Positions 2,892-48,645 of a stretch of DNA of 64,000 nt are shown piece after piece (position 1 is the stretch's first letter; each line of letters begins with the position of its first letter). The notes under the pieces are model-generated. The model did no database searches, was not told where the DNA came from, and saw nothing but the letters and a program-made list of their open reading frames with translations. Origin of the DNA: a virus (Duplodnaviria; Caudoviricetes); IMG/VR virus record IMGVR_UViG_3300032038_000003, positions 32,001 to 96,000 of that record; one strand, written 5' to 3'. The translations under genes were made by a program, and so were the position numbers.

Positions 2892-4676
2892 ATGCTAATC
2901 GTATCTCAATTACCAAGTGGTCATTTGAGTATTAAATGTGATTATTATTATCGTGATAGGATACATAGTGTTCCTACCGCATATTTTAATCCCAGTTTAA
3001 AACAATGGATGATAGAACCTTATATGCTTGGATATCTTGAGAACGAATTTAAAGGCGAACTTGTTTATAAAACGCCACGTTGGGTGATTTTAAACGAGCC
3101 TATGCCAGATATGTCCGAGATGTACAAGATATCTGATACAAGTATTAAATGTCCAGCATTAAAGCTCAAACCATTTGATTATCAAGATTATGGTGTACGC
3201 TTTATGATCGATAAGATTTTGCAGAACAATATGGTTCTAAACTCAGATGACGTTGGATTAGGAAAAACGATACAGACCATTGGTACTTTAAAATGGTTTA
3301 TTGATAATAAAGGATTTACCAAGATTCTTATTATCTGTAAGAAATCAATCAAAAGACAGTGGAAAGAAGAAATTGAAAAGTTTACAGACTTACAGAAAGA
3401 TTTTACATTACTTTATACTGGAGAAACAGCCGCTAAGCGTAAAAAGGCATATAAAGATTTTCAGAACGCCAATAAGGGCGTACTTATTACTAATTATCAT
3501 AGTTTTTTAAATGATACAGAGATAATTAAAATGCTTAATTACGATATGGTTGTTATCGATGAAGTACATTCTGTAAAAGCAAGAACTGGTAAATTGAATA
3601 ATAATATAGCATCTGCTGTACAAGGAAAACCAGTTATCTTTTTGACTGGTACTCCTGTTATGTCAAAACCAGAAGATATATTTGGTATTATTCAGATTGC
3701 CAATCCAGATTATTTTGGTCCGTGGAAAGAATTTTCTAAAGAGTATCTCGTTGGTACAATGACCAATTTTGGTTATAAGGTAGTAGGTGCAAAACACCTG
3801 GACGAACTACGAGACAAAGTACAGAACATCCTAATTCGTAGAACACGCTATGAAGTGTCTATTGATCTTCCAGAAACAAATATCGTAAAGATATCTTGTG
3901 ATATGGATGCTGTACAGTATAAGTTACTAAAGATGATATCCGAAGAAACTCTTGAATTAAATGATCAAATGAATCGTTTAAAAGGACCAGATGGAAAGAT
4001 TAAGAATCAACAATTATATGATGCACTTGAAGGGCGTTCTAAAGGTCTTATTGCTGCAAGACAGGCAGCAAGTACAGATCCACGTATGTTCTGGTACTCT
4101 AACTCTAAAATGATGAAAGAGAAATATGGAGCAGAAGTACCAAAGACATATAAGATGTCAAGCAAGGCAGAATCTATTGTGGATACAGTCGAAGATATTA
4201 TTCAGAGTGGTAATAAAGTAATTTTATTTTCAAAATTTGTTACTTCGGCAAAGTTAGTAGCACAAGATATTTATGACAAGTTAAAGATTCCTGTATTGAT
4301 GTACACTGGTTTAGAAAACCAGGATACAAGAGATAACAATGTTAATCTCTTTAAAGAATCTGTAGACCATAATATTCTCATTGGTACTGATGCTATGGCT
4401 GAAGGGTTAAATCTTCAAGTAGCTAATTATGTTATTAATATAGACCAGCCAGATACAAATGCTATCAAAGAACAGCGTATCGGTCGTGTACGTAGAGCTG
4501 GATCTAAATTTAATAATGTTACAGTATACGATATGATTACTGCCAACGGAATGAATATGAAATCGAAAGATGAAGAGCGTCTTGAGAATATCGAAAAGAA
4601 TAAAGATTTATCAGATGCTTTGATTTCTATTGATGAAGCACAGAGACAAGCTTTAATTACAGCAATGAAGAGGTAA
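2892..4676 (+). CDS. SNF2/SWI2-family helicase (SF2)
   Basis: DDVGLGKT (I), DEVH (II), LTGTP (III), AEGLNLQ (V), QRIGRVRR (VI). Confidence 0.93.
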   Translation: MLIVSQLPSGHLSIKCDYYYRDRIHSVPTAYFNPSLKQWMIEPYMLGYLENEFKGELVYKTPRWVILNEPMPDMSEMYKISDTSIKCPALKLKPFDYQDYGVRFMIDKILQNNMVLNSDDVGLGKTIQTIGTLKWFIDNKGFTKILIICKKSIKRQWKEEIEKFTDLQKDFTLLYTGETAAKRKKAYKDFQNANKGVLITNYHSFLNDTEIIKMLNYDMVVIDEVHSVKARTGKLNNNIASAVQGKPVIFLTGTPVMSKPEDIFGIIQIANPDYFGPWKEFSKEYLVGTMTNFGYKVVGAKHLDELRDKVQNILIRRTRYEVSIDLPETNIVKISCDMDAVQYKLLKMISEETLELNDQMNRLKGPDGKIKNQQLYDALEGRSKGLIAARQAASTDPRMFWYSNSKMMKEKYGAEVPKTYKMSSKAESIVDTVEDIIQSGNKVILFSKFVTSAKLVAQDIYDKLKIPVLMYTGLENQDTRDNNVNLFKESVDHNILIGTDAMAEGLNLQVANYVINIDQPDTNAIKEQRIGRVRRAGSKFNNVTVYDMITANGMNMKSKDEERLENIEKNKDLSDALISIDEAQRQALITAMKR

Positions 4677-5619: not shown

Positions 5620-6378
5620 ATGTTAGAAATCGTTGATATTGGTTTCACTTTGGATTTCACAACTTTTCATAATGTTGTTGACGAAGTAATATCGGACGAA
5701 TCTTCAAGAACTGGAATTGGCTTTGACTGGAGCGATAAAGAAGCTCATTTAAGTAAAAGCAATAAAAATGTATATAAAATTACATTTACCAATCTTGACA
5801 GCAGTAACACGATTGACTTGGTTGCAAGTAAAGTAGCAAGTGGAATACAATTCGAACCAATCGAATTAAGAAACTATAATAATACATTTTATAAATGGAA
5901 TTATGAGGACGATGATTTAATGCAAGTAATGTTACTTGCTTTAAAGAAGAGTGCATTAAAAGCCAAAGGAAACTTTGGATGTATTTTCGACGGTCAATAT
6001 ACCCTTGTAAAAGACGGTAGAGATATGTCCACACATGTTGCTGGTTTGGCAATAATTGATGATCGAGGAAAGGTATATCATCTGAAACACGGTCAGAACC
6101 TTGACGAAGAAGATGATGATAATACAATAGGATATGTTCCAAAGTACTTGATTAATGACTGGTTGGACGAGAATCCACAGTTTCAAGCAAAACTACAGAC
6201 AATACCAAAGATTGATCAGTTCGAGATGATGGCACAGTTTGCCGTATATCAGAAAAGAAAGAATATGTTAACAGCTGATCAGTTTAGAGATGTATTGTTA
6301 CAAGTAGGTACTTTTGCAGAAATGATAGGTGGTTTCAAAGATGAATCTATCAAGAGCATCTATCAATTTTTTGTATAA
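5620..6378 (+). CDS. Hypothetical protein
   Basis: 252-aa ORF, AAAGGAG RBS. Confidence 0.65.
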   Translation: MLEIVDIGFTLDFTTFHNVVDEVISDESSRTGIGFDWSDKEAHLSKSNKNVYKITFTNLDSSNTIDLVASKVASGIQFEPIELRNYNNTFYKWNYEDDDLMQVMLLALKKSALKAKGNFGCIFDGQYTLVKDGRDMSTHVAGLAIIDDRGKVYHLKHGQNLDEEDDDNTIGYVPKYLINDWLDENPQFQAKLQTIPKIDQFEMMAQFAVYQKRKNMLTADQFRDVLLQVGTFAEMIGGFKDESIKSIYQFFV

Positions 6379-10281: not shown

Positions 10282-11220
10282 ATGATTTATGACATTTCAA
10301 GCTATCAAGAGGGCTTGGATATAAGCACACTTGAAGATTTAGAGGGCGTAATCATTCGAGCAGGCTGGGGAGACGATTTTGAACAGCAGGACGATTCAGC
10401 AACACGGAATTTTGTTGAACAATGCAAGGCCAATGGCATCCCTTTCGGATTCTATCTCTTCAGCTATGCGACTGATACAGGAATTGGATTTGATTCGCAT
10501 ATAGAATCGGAAATTGAGCACATGAACAGGCTTTTGGCTTTGTATGGCACTCCTGCCTTGGGTGTATGGCTTGATATCGAGAATGAGGAGGCATACAAAA
10601 GGGCAAAATGCGGATGGGAGGATTCAGAGCACACCGATGAGCTGAATGGATACATTGCAAAATGGCTTGACACATATCCAACGGGTGGCATTTATTGCGA
10701 CAGAAGCCACAACAGTTATCTTGACATTCCAGTGGACAGACTATGGCTTGCTACACTTGACGGCACAAAGATAGAGGACTGTGTGCTCTGTCAGTTCACA
10801 TCAGACCCGCTTGATACAAATGTATGGGGAAATTATCGACTTGAGGCACACGAGGACGCAACAGAGGCTGAGGAAGAAGAGACAGAGGATGTGACTTACA
10901 TCGTGGAGCCAGGTGACACCCTTTGGAGTATCGCTGAACGATTCTTCGGTGATGGTAACCGATACAAGGAAATAGCTGAGCTTAATAACTTGGCTGACCC
11001 TAACATCATCCATGCAGGCCAAGAACTCGTGATACAGCGAGTCAGTGGTGATGATGAGGAAGAGTCACTTCCCGCTGACTACATCGTGCAGGAAGGCGAC
11101 ACACTCTGGAGCATAGCTGAAAGAGCCTACGGCGATGGAAGTAAGTACACAGAGATAGCTGAGAAGAACGGCTTGGAAAATCCTGAGCTAATCTATCCAG
11201 GACAAAGAATTATGCTATAA
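10282..11220 (+). CDS. Endolysin: GH25 muramidase + 2 LysM domains
   Basis: DISSYQ, IIRAG, GFYLFSYA, WLDIE (GH25); two YIV.xGDTLWSIA...N....P..I..GQ LysM repeats. Confidence 0.92.
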   Translation: MIYDISSYQEGLDISTLEDLEGVIIRAGWGDDFEQQDDSATRNFVEQCKANGIPFGFYLFSYATDTGIGFDSHIESEIEHMNRLLALYGTPALGVWLDIENEEAYKRAKCGWEDSEHTDELNGYIAKWLDTYPTGGIYCDRSHNSYLDIPVDRLWLATLDGTKIEDCVLCQFTSDPLDTNVWGNYRLEAHEDATEAEEEETEDVTYIVEPGDTLWSIAERFFGDGNRYKEIAELNNLADPNIIHAGQELVIQRVSGDDEEESLPADYIVQEGDTLWSIAERAYGDGSKYTEIAEKNGLENPELIYPGQRIML

Positions 11221-24072: not shown

Positions 24073-25241
24073 TGGCTGAACAGAAAACACTAAATGAAAA
24101 AATGAAATTATTAAACGGTCTCCAGAAACAAGTAAACAAAAAGTATGGAGAACGTGCTTTAATGACTGGTAAAGAGGCTATTGAGAGTGGTGCGTTAGAT
24201 AATGTTATTACCGCAACACCATCTTTAGAGTTGAACCAGGCACTATATTGTGGTGGTTTAAGTGGAATCGTAGAATTATTTGGACCACCAGCATCTGGTA
24301 AGACAAGTCTTGCTATTGAAACTCTTGCACAGGCACAGAAGAACGACCCTAACTTTATTGCGTTATGGGTTGAAACAGAGCATTCAATTACTCAAGACAT
24401 TCTTGAACAGCATGGAGTAGATATCTCCAGAATCGCATTTGCAGACCAGGCACAAGTAGATAGTGCTGAAAGTGTATTGGATATTGCATATGCTGCTATG
24501 GTTCAGAATGCAGTCAATATGGTTATTGTTAACTCTGTTGCTGGCTTCTTGCCAAAGCAAGAATTTGAAAGCGATTTAGATAAGCAGAACGTAGGACGTA
24601 CTGCTCAGTTAATGTCTAAATTGTTCAGAAAGATTACTGGTCCAGCTGGTAAGAATAAAATCAATGTAATCTTCATCAATCAGTTAAGAGATAAGATTGG
24701 TGTTATGTTTGGTGACCCTTCTACTACTACTGGTGGTAGAGCGTTGGCATTCTATGCTGATCAGAGAATCAGAATGAGTGCTTTAAAGATACAGGCAGCA
24801 GACCCAATCACAGCCAATGAAGGTGTAAAGATTCATTGTATTGTTCAGAAGAACAGAAGGGCTGGTAAGCATAATCCAAATACTGAATGTACTTATTATG
24901 CTTTATTTGACCAGGGTATAGACTCTACTGTAAGTATCCCTCAGTTACTTGCAGATAAGGGTATTTTTGAAGTGTCTGGTCGTTGGTGGTATTATCCATC
25001 AAAAGATAATGTACAGTCACTTGCTGGTGTTGAATGTAAATTCGGTTCTAAGAGCGATTTACAGAATCTTTTACGCACAAATGAAGCTTTCAAGAATGAA
25101 GTAAAGAATTTATTAAGCGTAAGCGAAGTTTCCGTTGAAGAGAAAGAAAGAATTGATGCAGAAGAAGAGGCTAATAATGCCTTTATGATGGATGCTGAAG
25201 CGTCGTTACAGAACGAAGTAGGAGACGAGAGTGACGCTTAA
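24072..25241 (+). CDS. recA: RecA/UvsX recombinase
   Basis: VELFGPPASGKT, IFINQLRDKIGVMFGDPSTTTGGRALAFYA. Confidence 0.95.
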   Translation: MAEQKTLNEKMKLLNGLQKQVNKKYGERALMTGKEAIESGALDNVITATPSLELNQALYCGGLSGIVELFGPPASGKTSLAIETLAQAQKNDPNFIALWVETEHSITQDILEQHGVDISRIAFADQAQVDSAESVLDIAYAAMVQNAVNMVIVNSVAGFLPKQEFESDLDKQNVGRTAQLMSKLFRKITGPAGKNKINVIFINQLRDKIGVMFGDPSTTTGGRALAFYADQRIRMSALKIQAADPITANEGVKIHCIVQKNRRAGKHNPNTECTYYALFDQGIDSTVSIPQLLADKGIFEVSGRWWYYPSKDNVQSLAGVECKFGSKSDLQNLLRTNEAFKNEVKNLLSVSEVSVEEKERIDAEEEANNAFMMDAEASLQNEVGDESDA

Positions 25242-44150: not shown

Positions 44151-44177
44151 TGAGCCAGAGGAATCTGGCTCATTTTT
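44151..44177 (+). terminator. Intrinsic terminator after spoVG
   Basis: TGAGCCAGA / TCTGGCTCA followed by TTTTT. Confidence 0.75.
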
Positions 44178-44192: not shown

Positions 44193-44912
44193 ATGAAGGA
44201 AACTAATCTTGATGCTATAAAAAGTACTGCTCGTACTTTATTATATGTTGATATTACGGAAACAGAATTTCCTTTTTGTTTAATCCATCCTTTTCTTAAT
44301 AACCGATACATGTCTTTTAGTAATAAAGACAGACAACTGGTTGACATACTTGAATCAGATGAAAATCTACAGAAAGCTCGTGATTTCTTTGAAAAGAAAA
44401 TTAATGAGGCAGATGATATATGGCGAATCTTAATGTATATGCATATACCGTATAGACCGTTATTATTTAAGTTGTGTGCAAATGATTTATCTGATGAAGA
44501 TTATGCACAGATGCTTGTAGAAGTATGGACTGGTACTGAAAATCCTAATCAAGATGCAAATGTTAAGATTACAGAATGGATACGATTTTTTAAAAAGGCA
44601 AAGAAAGATTTGCTAATGACAGAGGAAGAACTAAACGTTTATAATAGTCTTAGCGACACAGAACCAATTGAAATATATCGTGGAGTCGGACATGGAAGAG
44701 AACCATACGGATTATCGTGGACAGCAAATACCACTACTGCACAATGGTTCGCAAATCGCTGGAATAACCAGGATGCATATATGTTTAAAACCACTTGTAA
44801 AAAGACAGATATATTAGCATATTTCAATTGTAGAGGAGAAGATGAACTTGTTGTAAACATTAAGAATCTTGATAAAAGCAAGATGGAAAGGATAGATCTC
44901 AATGGAGGATAA
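44193..44912 (+). CDS. Putative ADP-ribosyltransferase-fold protein
   Basis: IYRG...LSWT....A.WFA...GEDELVV: R-S-E pattern. Confidence 0.55.
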   Translation: MKETNLDAIKSTARTLLYVDITETEFPFCLIHPFLNNRYMSFSNKDRQLVDILESDENLQKARDFFEKKINEADDIWRILMYMHIPYRPLLFKLCANDLSDEDYAQMLVEVWTGTENPNQDANVKITEWIRFFKKAKKDLLMTEEELNVYNSLSDTEPIEIYRGVGHGREPYGLSWTANTTTAQWFANRWNNQDAYMFKTTCKKTDILAYFNCRGEDELVVNIKNLDKSKMERIDLNGG

Positions 44913-46014
44913 GATTAAGAGACAAAAAATAATGGAAAGAGATCGATTCACATATGAAGATAAACTACGTTTTGCTGCTAAATCAGATGACAGATGTTGT
45001 CATTGTGGGAAGAAAGTTCATATTGGATACGGTGCAACTGTAGAACATTTCATTCCATTATCTCAAGGTGGCACTAATCGAGAAATTAATATGGTTATGT
45101 TATGTGAAGATTGTAATAAAAACAAAGGCAGCTTCATATACAGACCAGAAGATTATTTGTTATATCTCAAGAAAGAACACCTTGATAAGCTACAGGGTTA
45201 TTTTGATAGCTACATTAATTCGTTTGATTTTGTTAATCGAGATAACCTATTGGCATGTGATCGTTATAAAGTATGGGTAAATACCATGCCAGAACAAATG
45301 TATTACGCTATGAAATCACGTAAAAGACGCAAAGGACATATTGATATCATGAAAAGGTGTTCTGTACCATTATGGGTAAAAAGAGCCACGTATGATGATG
45401 TGGACAAACTTACAAAATATTATATTAAGTATCTTAAGAAATATCATTGTCTCGATTCAGAAGAATCTGCAAAGATTAATATCCAGTTCTGGATATCGTT
45501 TGGATGTATATATTATATTGAGCGTAATGGAAACATTGAAAGTTTCATTACGGTTACCATTACAAAGGCAAACGGTCATGTATTTCTGAATGATGACAAG
45601 TTAGATTATTATTTTACTGTAAATGTATTTACGTACTATAGTAACGAATATGCTCTTACATTAGGATATAATCTTTCAAGACAGATACCAAGATATTTAT
45701 CTGATGAACAGAATTTGAAACAGATACCAGTAAAATATTGCGTCATCTCTGAAGATACTTTGAGCGGTGAGATTTGTGATGGAGGAGCGATATATAAAGG
45801 AGATAGGTTCATATCATCATTCATGATTTTATATGATGGTGATAAAGATGAATTACCGCCTCTTATAGAAGACAAGGAACTTAAAAAGTTTTTCCAAAGA
45901 TTTGACGAAGTAAAAGAGGAACGATTAAAAGTATGGTTTGCCGTTCATGGTGAAGAGCCTTATGAATGGATGATGCGAGAATTAGAATTAGAAGAAAGTG
46001 AGGATAAGGAATGA
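44902..46014 (+). CDS. HNH endonuclease with large C-terminal (possibly GNAT-like) domain
   Basis: CHCG, EHFIPLSQGG.N...N....CEDCNKNK; C-domain begins VKRATYDDVDKL. Confidence 0.8.
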   Translation: MEDKIKRQKIMERDRFTYEDKLRFAAKSDDRCCHCGKKVHIGYGATVEHFIPLSQGGTNREINMVMLCEDCNKNKGSFIYRPEDYLLYLKKEHLDKLQGYFDSYINSFDFVNRDNLLACDRYKVWVNTMPEQMYYAMKSRKRRKGHIDIMKRCSVPLWVKRATYDDVDKLTKYYIKYLKKYHCLDSEESAKINIQFWISFGCIYYIERNGNIESFITVTITKANGHVFLNDDKLDYYFTVNVFTYYSNEYALTLGYNLSRQIPRYLSDEQNLKQIPVKYCVISEDTLSGEICDGGAIYKGDRFISSFMILYDGDKDELPPLIEDKELKKFFQRFDEVKEERLKVWFAVHGEEPYEWMMRELELEESEDKE

Positions 46015-46319
46015 GAAGAAAAGTTAAGTATATTCAGCCTGAGTGCCTTAAGAGGTACGAGAAGGCTATCAAGACATCAGATATGTGCATGGGTCTATCC
46101 GCTGCATTCGTCGCAGGGGCAGGAGTCATCATGCTGACGATAGAATATAACACCGGACTCCCAGTCTTAGGGATAGCTCTCCTGGTTATGGGAATCGGTA
46201 CCAGATTGCTCGCTGAGCTGTGGTACAGGAGGAGCAGATCGGATTTAAGAAGAATGCTCAACAGCCATGAATATCATGAGCTAGGACTCGCCATCATGGA
46301 GAAGGAAGGAGATCTATGA
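46011..46319 (+). CDS. Small membrane protein (2 TM)
   Basis: Starts in junction repeat; two hydrophobic segments; visibly GC-richer than flanks. Confidence 0.65.
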   Translation: MRRKVKYIQPECLKRYEKAIKTSDMCMGLSAAFVAGAGVIMLTIEYNTGLPVLGIALLVMGIGTRLLAELWYRRSRSDLRRMLNSHEYHELGLAIMEKEGDL

Positions 46320-46486
46320 TTGGATCAGCTGACAACAGACTTTCAGGTCGCTGGATTAAGCACGATGGCGACTTCCATGACAGTAGAGAGTGCTCAGTCT
46401 GCCATGTGTGGATGCCCTGGGATATGAATTATACAAATTATTGCCCTAACTGCGGTGCAAGGATGGAAAGTGAGGGTAAGGAATGA
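46316..46486 (+). CDS. Small Zn-ribbon protein (56 aa)
   Basis: GRWI...CSVC...YCPNCGARMESEGKE; not in ORF track. Confidence 0.65.
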   Translation: MIGSADNRLSGRWIKHDGDFHDSRECSVCHVWMPWDMNYTNYCPNCGARMESEGKE

Positions 46487-46665
46487 AACATAAATTAATT
46501 CAATGGTTTAAGCGAAATGCTTGTGAAAAATGTGATTACTATCATGCTAGCAATAATACATGTCAATCGAAAAAGTGCACAACTTGTGGTTGCCATCCGT
46601 ATGTTGATTGGTTTGATAGACATTTTTGCGAGCCATACAAGGCAGAAAGTGAGGATGAGGAATGA
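46483..46665 (+). CDS. Small Cys-rich protein
   Basis: Bounded by junction repeats; ends ESEDEE. Confidence 0.65.
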   Translation: MKHKLIQWFKRNACEKCDYYHASNNTCQSKKCTTCGCHPYVDWFDRHFCEPYKAESEDEE

Positions 46666-47141
46666 CAAGGGAAGAAGCAATCAATGACCTTAAAGATTTT
46701 ATTGATACTTACATAACAGTCCACGGGGAGGAAGATATCATTGCGGTTTCGCTTGATAATGTTGATGTTGAAGCCTTTGATATGGCAATCAAGGCATTAG
46801 AGCAACAGCCTTGTGAGGATAGTATCAGTAGAGCAGAAGCACAAACAGAAATAGAAATGAATGCTTCAAGATACGCAATTTCAAAAGAACGTGGTGGCAT
46901 GGGGCAAGTTGAATGGAGTGACCAACTTATCAAAGTTAGTGATGCAGTAGACATTATAAGACATTTGCCACCAGCACAGCCAAAGCCAAAGACAGGGCAT
47001 TGGGAAATGTGCGAAGATGCGGACGGAATATACGGAGTGTGTGATATATGCGGTACAGATGCAGATTTTACCCATTATGGAAAAGCATATCCGTATTGCC
47101 CTAACTGCGGTGCAAGGATGGAAAGTGAGGTTAAGGAATGA
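46662..47141 (+). CDS. Phage protein with C-terminal Zn ribbon
   Basis: MTREEAI...EAFDMAIKALEQ.PCED.ISR...GHW...CDIC...YCPNCGARMESEVKE. Confidence 0.75.
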   Translation: MTREEAINDLKDFIDTYITVHGEEDIIAVSLDNVDVEAFDMAIKALEQQPCEDSISRAEAQTEIEMNASRYAISKERGGMGQVEWSDQLIKVSDAVDIIRHLPPAQPKPKTGHWEMCEDADGIYGVCDICGTDADFTHYGKAYPYCPNCGARMESEVKE

Positions 47142-47476
47142 AAGTATGGAAGTTTAAAAAGCGTATTGAGATTGACAAAACAATCGGCAATATTCACATA
47201 GAAACATTCCACTATAGTTCTTTTGAAAACAACAAGCCTAAACACTGGACAGAGTTACATTGTTGGTATGAATGTGATTGCGAACATTGTTCGTTATCCT
47301 GGGAAGATAGAAGTTACGAAGGCGAATGTTATGATTGCGGATGTTTCTTGGCTAAAAAAGGACACGATAATGCACCGATGCTGATATGTATGTTACCAAG
47401 ATGGATAAAGAAAATATTGTTGAGGTACAAGATAAAACGTGCGGAGATATGTGCAGAAAGTGAGGATAAGGAATGA
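47138..47476 (+). CDS. Small Cys-rich protein
   Basis: Bounded by junction repeats; ends ESEDKE. Confidence 0.65.
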   Translation: MKVWKFKKRIEIDKTIGNIHIETFHYSSFENNKPKHWTELHCWYECDCEHCSLSWEDRSYEGECYDCGCFLAKKGHDNAPMLICMLPRWIKKILLRYKIKRAEICAESEDKE

Positions 47477-47724
47477 GTAAATCAATTTTAACAATAGATA
47501 CACCAAAAGGATGCGTTTTTTGCCCATTAGCAAAGATGCGTGCGTTTAATGCAATTCCTGTAAAAACAATAATGGGTAGACAGCCCTACATGGGTATTAC
47601 TTGCCCGTTTTGTAATGGTATCAGATACATCTATGATTTGACGGCTGATGAAGTATTGACCTATAAACATAAAGAATGTCCGTTAAGAGAAAGTGAGGAT
47701 ACAGAAGACAATGACAATGTTTGA
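47473..47724 (+). CDS. Small Cys-rich phage protein
   Basis: MSKSIL.IDTPK.C.FCP...CPLRESED. Confidence 0.65.
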   Translation: MSKSILTIDTPKGCVFCPLAKMRAFNAIPVKTIMGRQPYMGITCPFCNGIRYIYDLTADEVLTYKHKECPLRESEDTEDNDNV

Positions 47725-47811
47725 CGCACTATGCGTTGGTGTAACTTTACTAATTGTATTTGGTTTCGGCTATTTCATAGGATATATGAATAGCAATAAT
47801 GGAGGACGCAA

Positions 47812-48156
47812 ATGATAGAAATAGATAACTTTAATAGACAGCTGGTTTATAGAAACTCTGTAAGAACAGAAGATGGTTCGATATTACATGTTGCATTTAT
47901 ATTAGATCCACATGATATAGAAATTATTTATCAGTGGAGACAAAGTGAAAATGATAAAGTAGATATCGATGAAAATATTTCTGAATATCTTACAACAGAG
48001 GAGTTAAAACGATATAATAGCCTCGATGAAAAGCAACAGCTAGAGTTCATTACAAAGGCTGCCGATTTGAAAAGACATTTTATGGACAGCGACAACATTG
48101 CATGGCGAGAAGCAACTGAGATGGCTATCAAAGAAATTAAGTTACAATATTTGTAA
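47812..48156 (+). CDS. Hypothetical protein
   Basis: GGAGG RBS. Confidence 0.6.
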   Translation: MIEIDNFNRQLVYRNSVRTEDGSILHVAFILDPHDIEIIYQWRQSENDKVDIDENISEYLTTEELKRYNSLDEKQQLEFITKAADLKRHFMDSDNIAWREATEMAIKEIKLQYL

Positions 48157-48232
48157 CTTTATGTTGCATTTATTTTTCCTCCGTGTTAATATGTTTATAT
48201 CTAATAAACATACTATATACGGAGGTATTAAT

Positions 48233-48602: not shown

Positions 48603-48645
48603 AATAAGGCGGTGTAGGATAATCCTACACCGCCTATTTGTTTTT
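48599..48645. terminator. Bidirectional terminator at the convergence of the two gene blocks
   Basis: AGGCGGTGTAGGAT / ATCCTACACCGCCT, A-tract on the left and T-tract on the right. Confidence 0.85.

Follow-up and report, generated by a model that had tools for sequence, protein, structure and literature searches.

Whether phage mosaicism arises by recombination at short conserved linkers or by random illegitimate joining followed by selection is an old question. "Boundary" or linker sequences belong to the modular theory of phage evolution (Susskind and Botstein 1978; Clark et al. 2001; both as cited in PMC3029335), and the linker model has been short of clear examples because linkers are described as not seen at most module boundaries (PMC3029335). 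In T4-type phages, promoter-early stem-loop (PeSL) cassettes of ~100 bp lie between genes, carry a sigma-70 promoter and a terminator stem-loop, and have been described within one phage family; mini-circles have been shown for them (Arbiol et al. 2010, PMC2839356; Comeau et al. 2014, PMC4122927). In cluster K mycobacteriophages, 13-bp Start-Associated Sequences (SAS; GGGATAGGAGCCC) are found 3 to 7 bp before start codons. About half of them carry an additional 17-bp inverted repeat, they are confined to this one phage cluster, and they were proposed to act in translation or factor binding, with no role in gene gain or loss shown (Pope et al. 2011, PMC3203893). Here we describe a 21-nucleotide (nt) motif that joins small accessory genes in a jumbo phage of the Caudoviricetes (IMG/VR record IMGVR_UViG_3300032038_000003; 210,314 bp, rated complete, with an overall GC content of ~33%). 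The stretch analyzed comprises 64,000 nt of this genome (positions 32,001 to 96,000 of the record) and is called the window; its numbering is used throughout. The motif is probably a translational-coupling junction that doubles as a short-homology recombination linker and is used by the accessory-gene pool of rumen phages.

A scan of the window with the pattern GAAAGTGAGGNTNAGGAATGA detected five copies with no mismatches, all on the + strand, at 45994..46014, 46466..46486, 46645..46665, 47121..47141, and 47456..47476. Dinucleotide-preserving shuffles of the window (n = 100) contained a mean of 0.03 matches, and none of the 100 reached five. No further copy was found in the whole 210,314-bp genome, even when two mismatches were allowed, and all five full copies are confined to one 1.5-kb stretch of the 210-kb genome. 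A partial copy at 47689 has the first 13 nt of the motif in common. Every full copy constitutes the final 21 nt of an open reading frame (ORF), and its closing ATGA overlaps the start of the next one; the ORF tails at the copies are, in order, ESEDKE, ESEGKE, ESEDEE, ESEVKE, and ESEDKE. The motif is composed of GAAAG-T-GAGG, which corresponds to a long Shine-Dalgarno (SD) sequence, a 7-nt spacer, and the ATGA stop/start overlap, and it provides stops in two of three frames. Both a TGA and a TAA inside it are in frame with the downstream gene and would thus also close any upstream gene that enters in this frame. The second copy has a G at position 11, the third has a G at position 13 and directly follows the common extension TACAAGGCA, and the fourth has a T at position 11. 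The five full copies and the partial one, as well as the ESE tail, SD, and ATGA at each full copy, had been reported in the initial annotation of this locus, and the pattern scan and the ORF ends bear them out. The motif reads as a nucleotide-level unit of extended SD, spacer, and stop/start overlap and not as a peptide tag.

A near-identical array was found by a protein-based scan on an otherwise unrelated 16-kb contig, a part of which (L160) was compared with the window. The contig has a GC content of 0.468, carries a family A DNA polymerase, a DUF2800 protein, and a pentapeptide-repeat protein, and has only the array and a GH25/LysM endolysin (78% amino acid identity) in common with the jumbo genome. 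The endolysin-type gene of the jumbo phage is located at 10282-11217 (+) of the window and shows a weak GH25 match and two LysM domains. That the endolysin type is shared suggests a common host of the two otherwise unrelated phages. Three segments are 97.6 to 98.1% identical to L160 at the nucleotide level, namely, the genes for the 102-amino-acid (aa) and 56-aa proteins, most of the 159-aa gene, and the 112-aa gene. L160 lacks the 60-aa cassette of the window, contains an additional 62-aa cassette that separates the 159-aa gene from the 112-aa gene, has another N-terminus on the 159-aa gene, and carries a different gene after the 112-aa gene, i.e., after motif copy 5. All breakpoints between the window and L160 lie at motif copies except one, which is intragenic at ~46769; at copy 2, the homology stops exactly after the ATGA. 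The L160 copies around the extra cassette have G1/A11 on the left and C1/T11 on the right, and the single window copy at 47121 has G1/T11. This copy is therefore a chimera that combines the left and right L160 copies and places a crossover within motif positions 2 to 10. In the L160 copy after the 56-aa gene, a 1-nt insertion causes the upstream gene to stop at the internal TAA, and the ATG start of the next gene is kept.

The nearest relatives of the jumbo phage lack the array. The array is preceded by a 370-aa HNH gene (44902..46014, +), whose last 21 nt are copy 1 and whose product contains an N-terminal Pfam HNH domain (E = 1.4e-11). In IMG/VR, no relatives were found via the 239-aa gene upstream of it, and the HNH protein matched distant HNH domains only. 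A metagenome scan with the HNH protein detected two relatives, L152 (92-kb contig) and L153 (1.2-kb contig), in which this protein is 95% and 86% identical, respectively; the DNA of L152 is 79 to 89% identical over 20 kb. In blastn comparisons, both are colinear with the window to ~46005 and resume at 47802-47810. They are devoid of a 1.8-kb block of seven small, co-oriented genes (46008..47801, +) and contain instead one motif-like junction, GAAAGCGAGGATGACAATGA in L152 and GAAAGCGAGAATAAAAATGA in L153, at which the HNH gene overlaps a 114-aa gene by ATGA in both. The tails of the HNH proteins are ..ESEDDND (L152) and ..ESENKND (L153). At copy 1 (GAAAGTGAGGATAAGGAATGA), homology to the jumbo relatives stops at ~46005 and homology to L160 begins at 46003, which makes this copy a left hybrid joint that is resident up to GAAAG and of donor sequence from GATAAGG on. 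At the other end of the block, the half motif GAAAGTGAGGAT is followed after 6 nt by GACAATGA (47689..47716, +), which equals the right half of the L152 junction, and the tail ..ESEDTEDND of the 83-aa protein ending there echoes the tail ..ESEDDND of the L152 HNH protein. The half motif may thus be the right hybrid joint, with its left half derived from a donor motif and its right half from the resident junction. The relatives carry the motif-like sequence GAAAGCGAGGAT at the insertion site, and no other near copy of it was found in 210 kb. These comparisons suggest that the block was inserted by recombination within GAAAG(T/C)GAGGAT, which would have split the resident junction into two hybrid copies.

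The GC content is 0.47 to 0.51 over 46000-46400 and 0.30 to 0.39 in the flanks, in line with the GC-rich first segment described initially. The GC content of the array and its 98% identity to L160, as opposed to 79 to 89% for the jumbo relatives, point to a recent transfer from a higher-GC phage, and the array appears to be a recent import into the jumbo phage, with the direction of transfer deduced from the same comparison. The initial annotation had proposed that genes are gained, lost, or shuffled at the junction while translational coupling is kept, and had named gene order in relatives and the position of breakpoints as checks. The comparisons with L160, L152, and L153 support this proposal: gene order is not common to the relatives, and breakpoints coincide with the motif or fall within it, one of them in the chimeric copy at 47121.

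The 21-mer is not private to this phage; a large gene pool of rumen phages uses it as a standard junction. The proposed search for it in other contigs detected it by exact-pattern scan in at least 118 IMG/VR contigs, many of which hold two or three copies, and the consensus 21-mer was present in 24 contigs of GTDB genomes. The latter were mostly rumen Lachnospiraceae metagenome-assembled genomes and included Eubacterium ruminantium ATCC 17233 and Butyrivibrio sp. INlla21. Carriers range from small-phage fragments to genomes of 116 to 210 kb and include prophages; other complete large phages (116 to 145 kb) contain three to six copies clustered in one or two short regions. Among GenBank phages, blastn of positions 44900-48200 gave no match, and a 30-nt extended motif gave near matches only, the best being to Butyrivibrio virus Ceridwen (24/27). 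Of the papers listed in a literature search on the 10-mer of the motif, all were unrelated and none dealt with phages, and we found no description of the element. Outside the Lachnospiraceae, an exact copy and a 21/22 copy were seen in Streptococcus pseudoporcinus LQ 940-04 (L134, 1.8-Mb contig) and in GenBank entry MK448364, satellite phage Javan211 of Streptococcus equinus.

The neighbors of the motif were surveyed for 182 instances from the collected loci, most of which had been fetched by exact match. The flanking proteins cluster into 92 upstream and 118 downstream families, and 131 different family pairings were observed among the 143 instances with both flanks. A downstream ORF of at least 35 codons is present in 172 of the 182 instances. 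When flank sharing was defined as at least 75% identity over the adjacent 60 nt in instance pairs from different contigs, 35 pairs had only one flank in common (18 upstream and 17 downstream), and 13 pairs, mostly from duplicate contigs, shared both. A long upstream ORF is absent at 27/182 copies, some of which directly follow a stop codon and some of which follow iteron-like tandem repeats. The motif also serves as a free-standing start signal, possibly near replication origins. In three loci (L082 at ~4575-4640, L110, and L111), it was seen directly after iteron-like repeats (e.g., TTAGTCAAG, or GATTTAAACAA three times) without an upstream gene. A further observation concerns a 45-nt remnant coding for MSDLISRQAAIDALQGRK, which lies between two motif copies or ends a longer protein (L010 at ~5705-5791; L088, L096, L117, L100, L102, and L103). 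Its frame differs from that of ESEDKE and stops at the motif-internal TGA, and different genes follow it in the seven contigs. The remnant has the appearance of a 30-nt extended junction that was pasted out of frame.

Since the motif is usually translated, the conserved feature could be the peptide tail ..(A)ESEDKE, acting as a C-terminal tag (a degron or a sorting or partner-binding signal), with the DNA repeat as a by-product. The upstream gene indeed ends in the ESE.KE frame (frame 0) in 141/182 instances, and the tail is acidic and uniform. However, the same DNA is used in another frame in 11/182 instances, in which the upstream gene ends at the TGA within GTGAGG (frame 2, tail ..RK), as well as after stop codons and after noncoding repeats, and the 1-nt insertion in L160 alters the tail and keeps the junction. 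Conservation was quantified for 294 copies in unique contexts with up to four mismatches, collected from 1.25 Mb of fetched loci; a reversed-motif control yielded nine matches, all at four mismatches. Positions 1 to 5 (GAAAG), 7 to 10 (GAGG), and 17 to 21 (AATGA) are nearly invariant, including the synonymous third positions 3, 9, and 18. Positions 6, 11, 12, 13, 15, and 16 vary regardless of codon position. In the fourth and fifth codons, variation is seen at codon positions 1 and 2, and the variation within the window (D/G/V and K/E) is nonsynonymous. The information content is at background outside positions -5 to +21. Fixed synonymous and variable nonsynonymous sites indicate a constraint on nucleotides and not on the peptide, and identity at synonymous positions thus exceeds what the peptide requires, which had been suggested as a test. 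On account of the codon-position evidence and the use in other frames, the peptide-tag explanation was rejected as highly improbable.

In every copy, GAGG is located 7 nt before the ATG, which is also the spacing most often seen for ordinary genes, both of this genome and of the collected loci, and AAAGTGAGG precedes fewer than 1% of the other genes in this genome. The 3' end of the canonical Bacillota 16S rRNA served as the anti-SD sequence in a pairing model. The predicted duplex comprises 10 pairs with T6 bulged and has an energy of -13 kcal/mol, for an anti-SD that may differ from that of the hosts. Signals of transcription were scanned for by consensus only. The number of promoter-like sites (21) was close to the expectation (21.9), none of them overlapped a motif copy or lay at a junction, and strong terminators were detected only at 44151 and 48607, with none at the junctions. 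No hairpin was indicated at the junctions, as 81-nt windows around the five copies folded no better than shuffles (z = -1.66 to +1.36); the motif, of which 18/21 nt are purines, is unpaired in most predicted folds.

These properties raise the question of whether the motif might be kept for expression only, with breakpoints reflecting random illegitimate recombination and selection for intact genes and with no causal role of the motif. Several observations weigh in this direction or otherwise against the double role of the motif. The conserved positions coincide with the needs of the ribosome-binding site (RBS) and the start codon, the spacing is typical, and selection on translation alone could keep much of the motif. 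Shuffles of the purine-rich motif pair nearly as well with the anti-SD, 14% of them equally well or better. Homologs that were fetched by protein show junctions ranging from exact to unrecognizable as the genes diverge, which argues that the exact 21-mer is not under absolute constraint, and drift has made the resident junctions of L152 and L153 unlike each other. As most loci were fetched by exact match, the numbers of exact copies carry a bias. Non-motif junctions are often breakpoints too (55% of the informative ones), as expected if selection keeps intact-gene recombinants. Finally, 21 bp is at or below the measured pairing length of known recombinases; the minimal efficient segment has been reported to be 23 to 27 bp for Red-beta and 31 to 34 bp for RecA (PMC3945230). 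Together with the common upstream extension (TACAAGGCA or GAGCCACAG), the motif amounts to 27 to 30 bp.

To what extent breakpoints concentrate at the motif was estimated from homologies that are at least 88% identical and extend to a tight same-strand junction. These stopped at 65/90 motif-like junctions versus 103/186 other tight junctions, an odds ratio of 2.1 (p = 0.008) that is only indicative because gene calls were crude and the loci were centered on the motif. Gene boundaries in general appear to be breakpoints, to which the motif seems to add a moderate excess. In addition, 11 cassette-size insertions or deletions (indels) were found between close relatives, several of which have direct repeats on either side, consisting of the motif or of purine-rich SD-ATGA junctions that resemble it, and the overlap amounts to 8 to 24 nt. 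A motif kept for expression only fits poorly with these flanking repeats. Nor does it fit well with the chimeric copy at 47121, which puts a crossover inside the motif, or with the insertion of the array at the very site that in the relatives is occupied by GAAAGCGAGGAT, of which 210 kb contain no other near copy. The spacer is the same in most copies, which an RBS does not require. We therefore consider it unlikely that expression alone explains the motif. Its abundance probably reflects selection on the SD and start together with repeated copying by recombination.

The exchange could be served by different enzymes. Rad52-like and RecA proteins of the phage had been suggested initially; of these, RecA is present, whereas a Rad52-like protein was not detected. 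The RecA-family gene (24120-24920, +; PF00154, E = 4.6e-56; 394-aa open frame) encodes the only general recombinase family found among those searched, and this genome gave no Pfam match for Rad52 (PF04098), RecT, or ERF. Among 40 motif-bearing viral records, RecT was found in 8 and ERF in 7 others (15/40 in total). A search of the whole 210-kb genome for the tyrosine recombinase family PF00589 gave no match, whereas each of the 14 control genomes scored. The HNH protein was considered as a cassette-moving enzyme and rejected, as the relatives keep it without the array and no association is apparent elsewhere (HNH homologs near the motif in 5/142 loci).

The motif might also be the recognition site of a dedicated factor common to the phages or their hosts. 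Such a factor could be a repressor of translation or an RNase that acts on a regulon of accessory genes, or else a nuclease or recombinase with site specificity that moves cassettes, in a true integron-like or homing system. In more than 100 genomes, the identity extends over 21 nt, which is more than an SD needs, the SAS likewise have conserved nonpairing positions for which a binding factor was proposed (PMC3203893), and an HNH gene precedes the array. Nevertheless, the lack of a tyrosine recombinase match in the genome and of a hairpin or inverted repeat at the junctions speaks against such a factor, as does the HNH gene, which is present in array-less relatives and is rarely near the motif. 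Moreover, the crossovers look homologous, with no fixed cut site, and no candidate factor was identified. We regard a recognition site of this kind as decidedly unlikely. Hardly less doubtful is the broader idea that the 21-mer is a community-wide "plug" read by a dedicated factor, for example, a regulator of translation or an RNase in control of the entire accessory-gene set, or a nuclease or annealing protein by which exchange is directed to the motif. If it were true, diverse rumen phages, including the jumbo phage, would draw on a single pool of cassettes under regulation and active exchange, comparable to an integron of phages that operates at the ribosome-binding site.

Among the known systems, the motif is closer to PeSLs and boundary sequences than to integrons. 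The likeness to an integron without an integrase, put forward initially, is limited to arrays of small, co-oriented, apparently promoterless, unrelated genes with a repeat at their ends and to gain, loss, and reordering at this repeat. In contrast to integron sites, the rumen motif is purine rich, forms no imperfect palindrome or single-strand fold, is translated, and contains an RBS, and the crossovers look homologous. As neither an integrase nor an attC-like hairpin was found, the integron reading was rejected in favor of homologous recombination at a short linker. PeSLs may be regarded as the nearest working analogue. Both are short repeats that carry expression signals, end in an SD and start codon, and border small genes without a known function in variable regions. 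In both, close relatives differ at the repeat, and single genes are lost or gained by recombination between copies without loss of expression. However, the rumen motif is only 21 to 27 nt long, usually lies inside the coding end of the upstream gene, has no promoter or hairpin, and couples translation instead of transcription, and it is common to very different phages and prophages, whereas PeSLs have been described in one family. SAS resemble the motif as asymmetric repeats in a single orientation, located a few bases before the starts of nonstructural genes of different families, with an SD core, conserved positions that cannot pair with 16S rRNA, and upstream stops that sometimes fall inside the repeat. 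Their sequence and host group are unlike those of the rumen motif, so that only the logic is in common. With the boundary sequences of the modular theory, the motif shares a short sequence conserved between unrelated neighbor genes, at which homologous recombination joins modules, and a crossover inside the linker is seen here. Recombinant joints within the linker are represented by the copy at 47121 and by the hybrid joint at 45994, probably also by that at 47689. The difference lies in the use of one 21-mer at more than 180 junctions with ~100 gene families on each side and in its additional role in translation.

From these comparisons, the following mechanism may be envisaged. The junction would be the standard for small accessory genes of phages and prophages of the rumen, mainly those of Lachnospiraceae. 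On the mRNA, GAAAG-T-GAGG would pair with the ribosome as a long SD with one bulged base, and after a 7-nt spacer, the ATGA would couple stop to start. On the DNA, 21 to 27 identical bases between unrelated genes, common to co-infecting phages, would act as a homology patch at which general recombination could add, delete, or replace single genes in register. Because exchange at the motif is in register, every product would stay expressed. The likely enzymes are RecA in the jumbo phage and, in the donor pool, phage annealing proteins of the RecT/ERF type; any circular intermediate is conjectural. The array of the jumbo phage would have come from a higher-GC phage and entered the resident motif-like junction between the HNH and 114-aa genes. 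Support for this mechanism is of a comparative nature throughout.

The genes of the array are small, and several are Cys rich or zinc-ribbon-like with only weak family matches. Cassette 1 encodes a 102-aa membrane-type protein (46011..46319, +), which is 98% identical in L160 and gave no match in family profile searches. Its gene is joined by a plain ATGA overlap without the motif to the gene for a 56-aa zinc-ribbon protein (46316..46486, +) that ends in CPNCGARM-ESEGKE and has a weak phrog_22543 match. The 60-aa Cys-rich protein (46483..46665, +) is encoded by a single cassette that is present in L025, where it has a motif derivative on each side. The 159-aa protein (46662..47141, +) consists of two parts, with a C-terminal zinc ribbon and ~35 N-terminal residues unlike those of the L160 ortholog. 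Inside its gene, a conserved segment (..DMAIKALEQ.PCEDSISRAEAQ..; 46770..46836, +) matches ~30 other loci at 81 to 96% identity. It represents the one breakpoint with L160 outside the motif copies and looks like a second, domain-level recombination joint within a family of two-part small proteins. The 112-aa Cys-rich protein (47138..47476, +) is 96% identical in L160 and has homologs at 66 to 85% identity in L161 to L163, with progressively degenerate junctions. The 83-aa CxxC protein (47473..47724, +) has homologs in one Butyrivibrio genome and three viral contigs that are flanked by the motif or variants; the canonical motif or a close variant ends the homologs (canonical in L157, L158, and L144). 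A candidate 34-aa membrane mini-gene (47711..47815, +) with an uncertain start codon ends in a generic GGAGG-N7-ATGA junction; it is absent from the relatives too and may stem from a separate event.

The description of the array genes as unrelated and Cys/Zn rich holds for most of them; the exception is that the 56-aa gene is related to the C-terminus of the 159-aa gene, the remaining genes being mutually unrelated. These two different genes share a 48- to 50-nt repeat (46439-46486 and 47094-47141) that encodes the same CPNCGARM zinc-ribbon end and the motif. The 21 nt preceding the motif are identical between the two window repeats and show three site differences between the orthologous L160 copies, and both window copies have AGG where both L160 copies have AAG. 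This hints at conversion between the zinc-ribbon-plus-motif repeats. The block is flanked by genes of the jumbo phage lineage. Upstream of the HNH gene, which is resident in this lineage, lies the 239-aa gene (44193-44912, +), with a match to phrog_4776 (E = 1e-39; function unknown) and no informative Pfam match; downstream, the lineage-resident 114-aa gene (47812..48156, +) directly follows the HNH gene in the relatives. At 48607-48635, a perfect hairpin with a 13-bp stem, accompanied by runs of T on either strand, resembles a bidirectional terminator. It ends the rightward block holding the array where leftward genes meet it.

The rumen motif provides a clear natural example of gene exchange between phages by the linker route, which was proposed long ago. 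With more than 180 boundaries, an internal crossover, and whole-gene differences between near-identical arrays, it makes the linker model directly testable. It also provides a practical marker for variable accessory-gene islands in rumen viromes and a natural design for in-register, translationally coupled stacking of genes. For the biology of the jumbo phage, the array means that this phage takes its accessory genes from a pool in common with small phages, which probably share its host.

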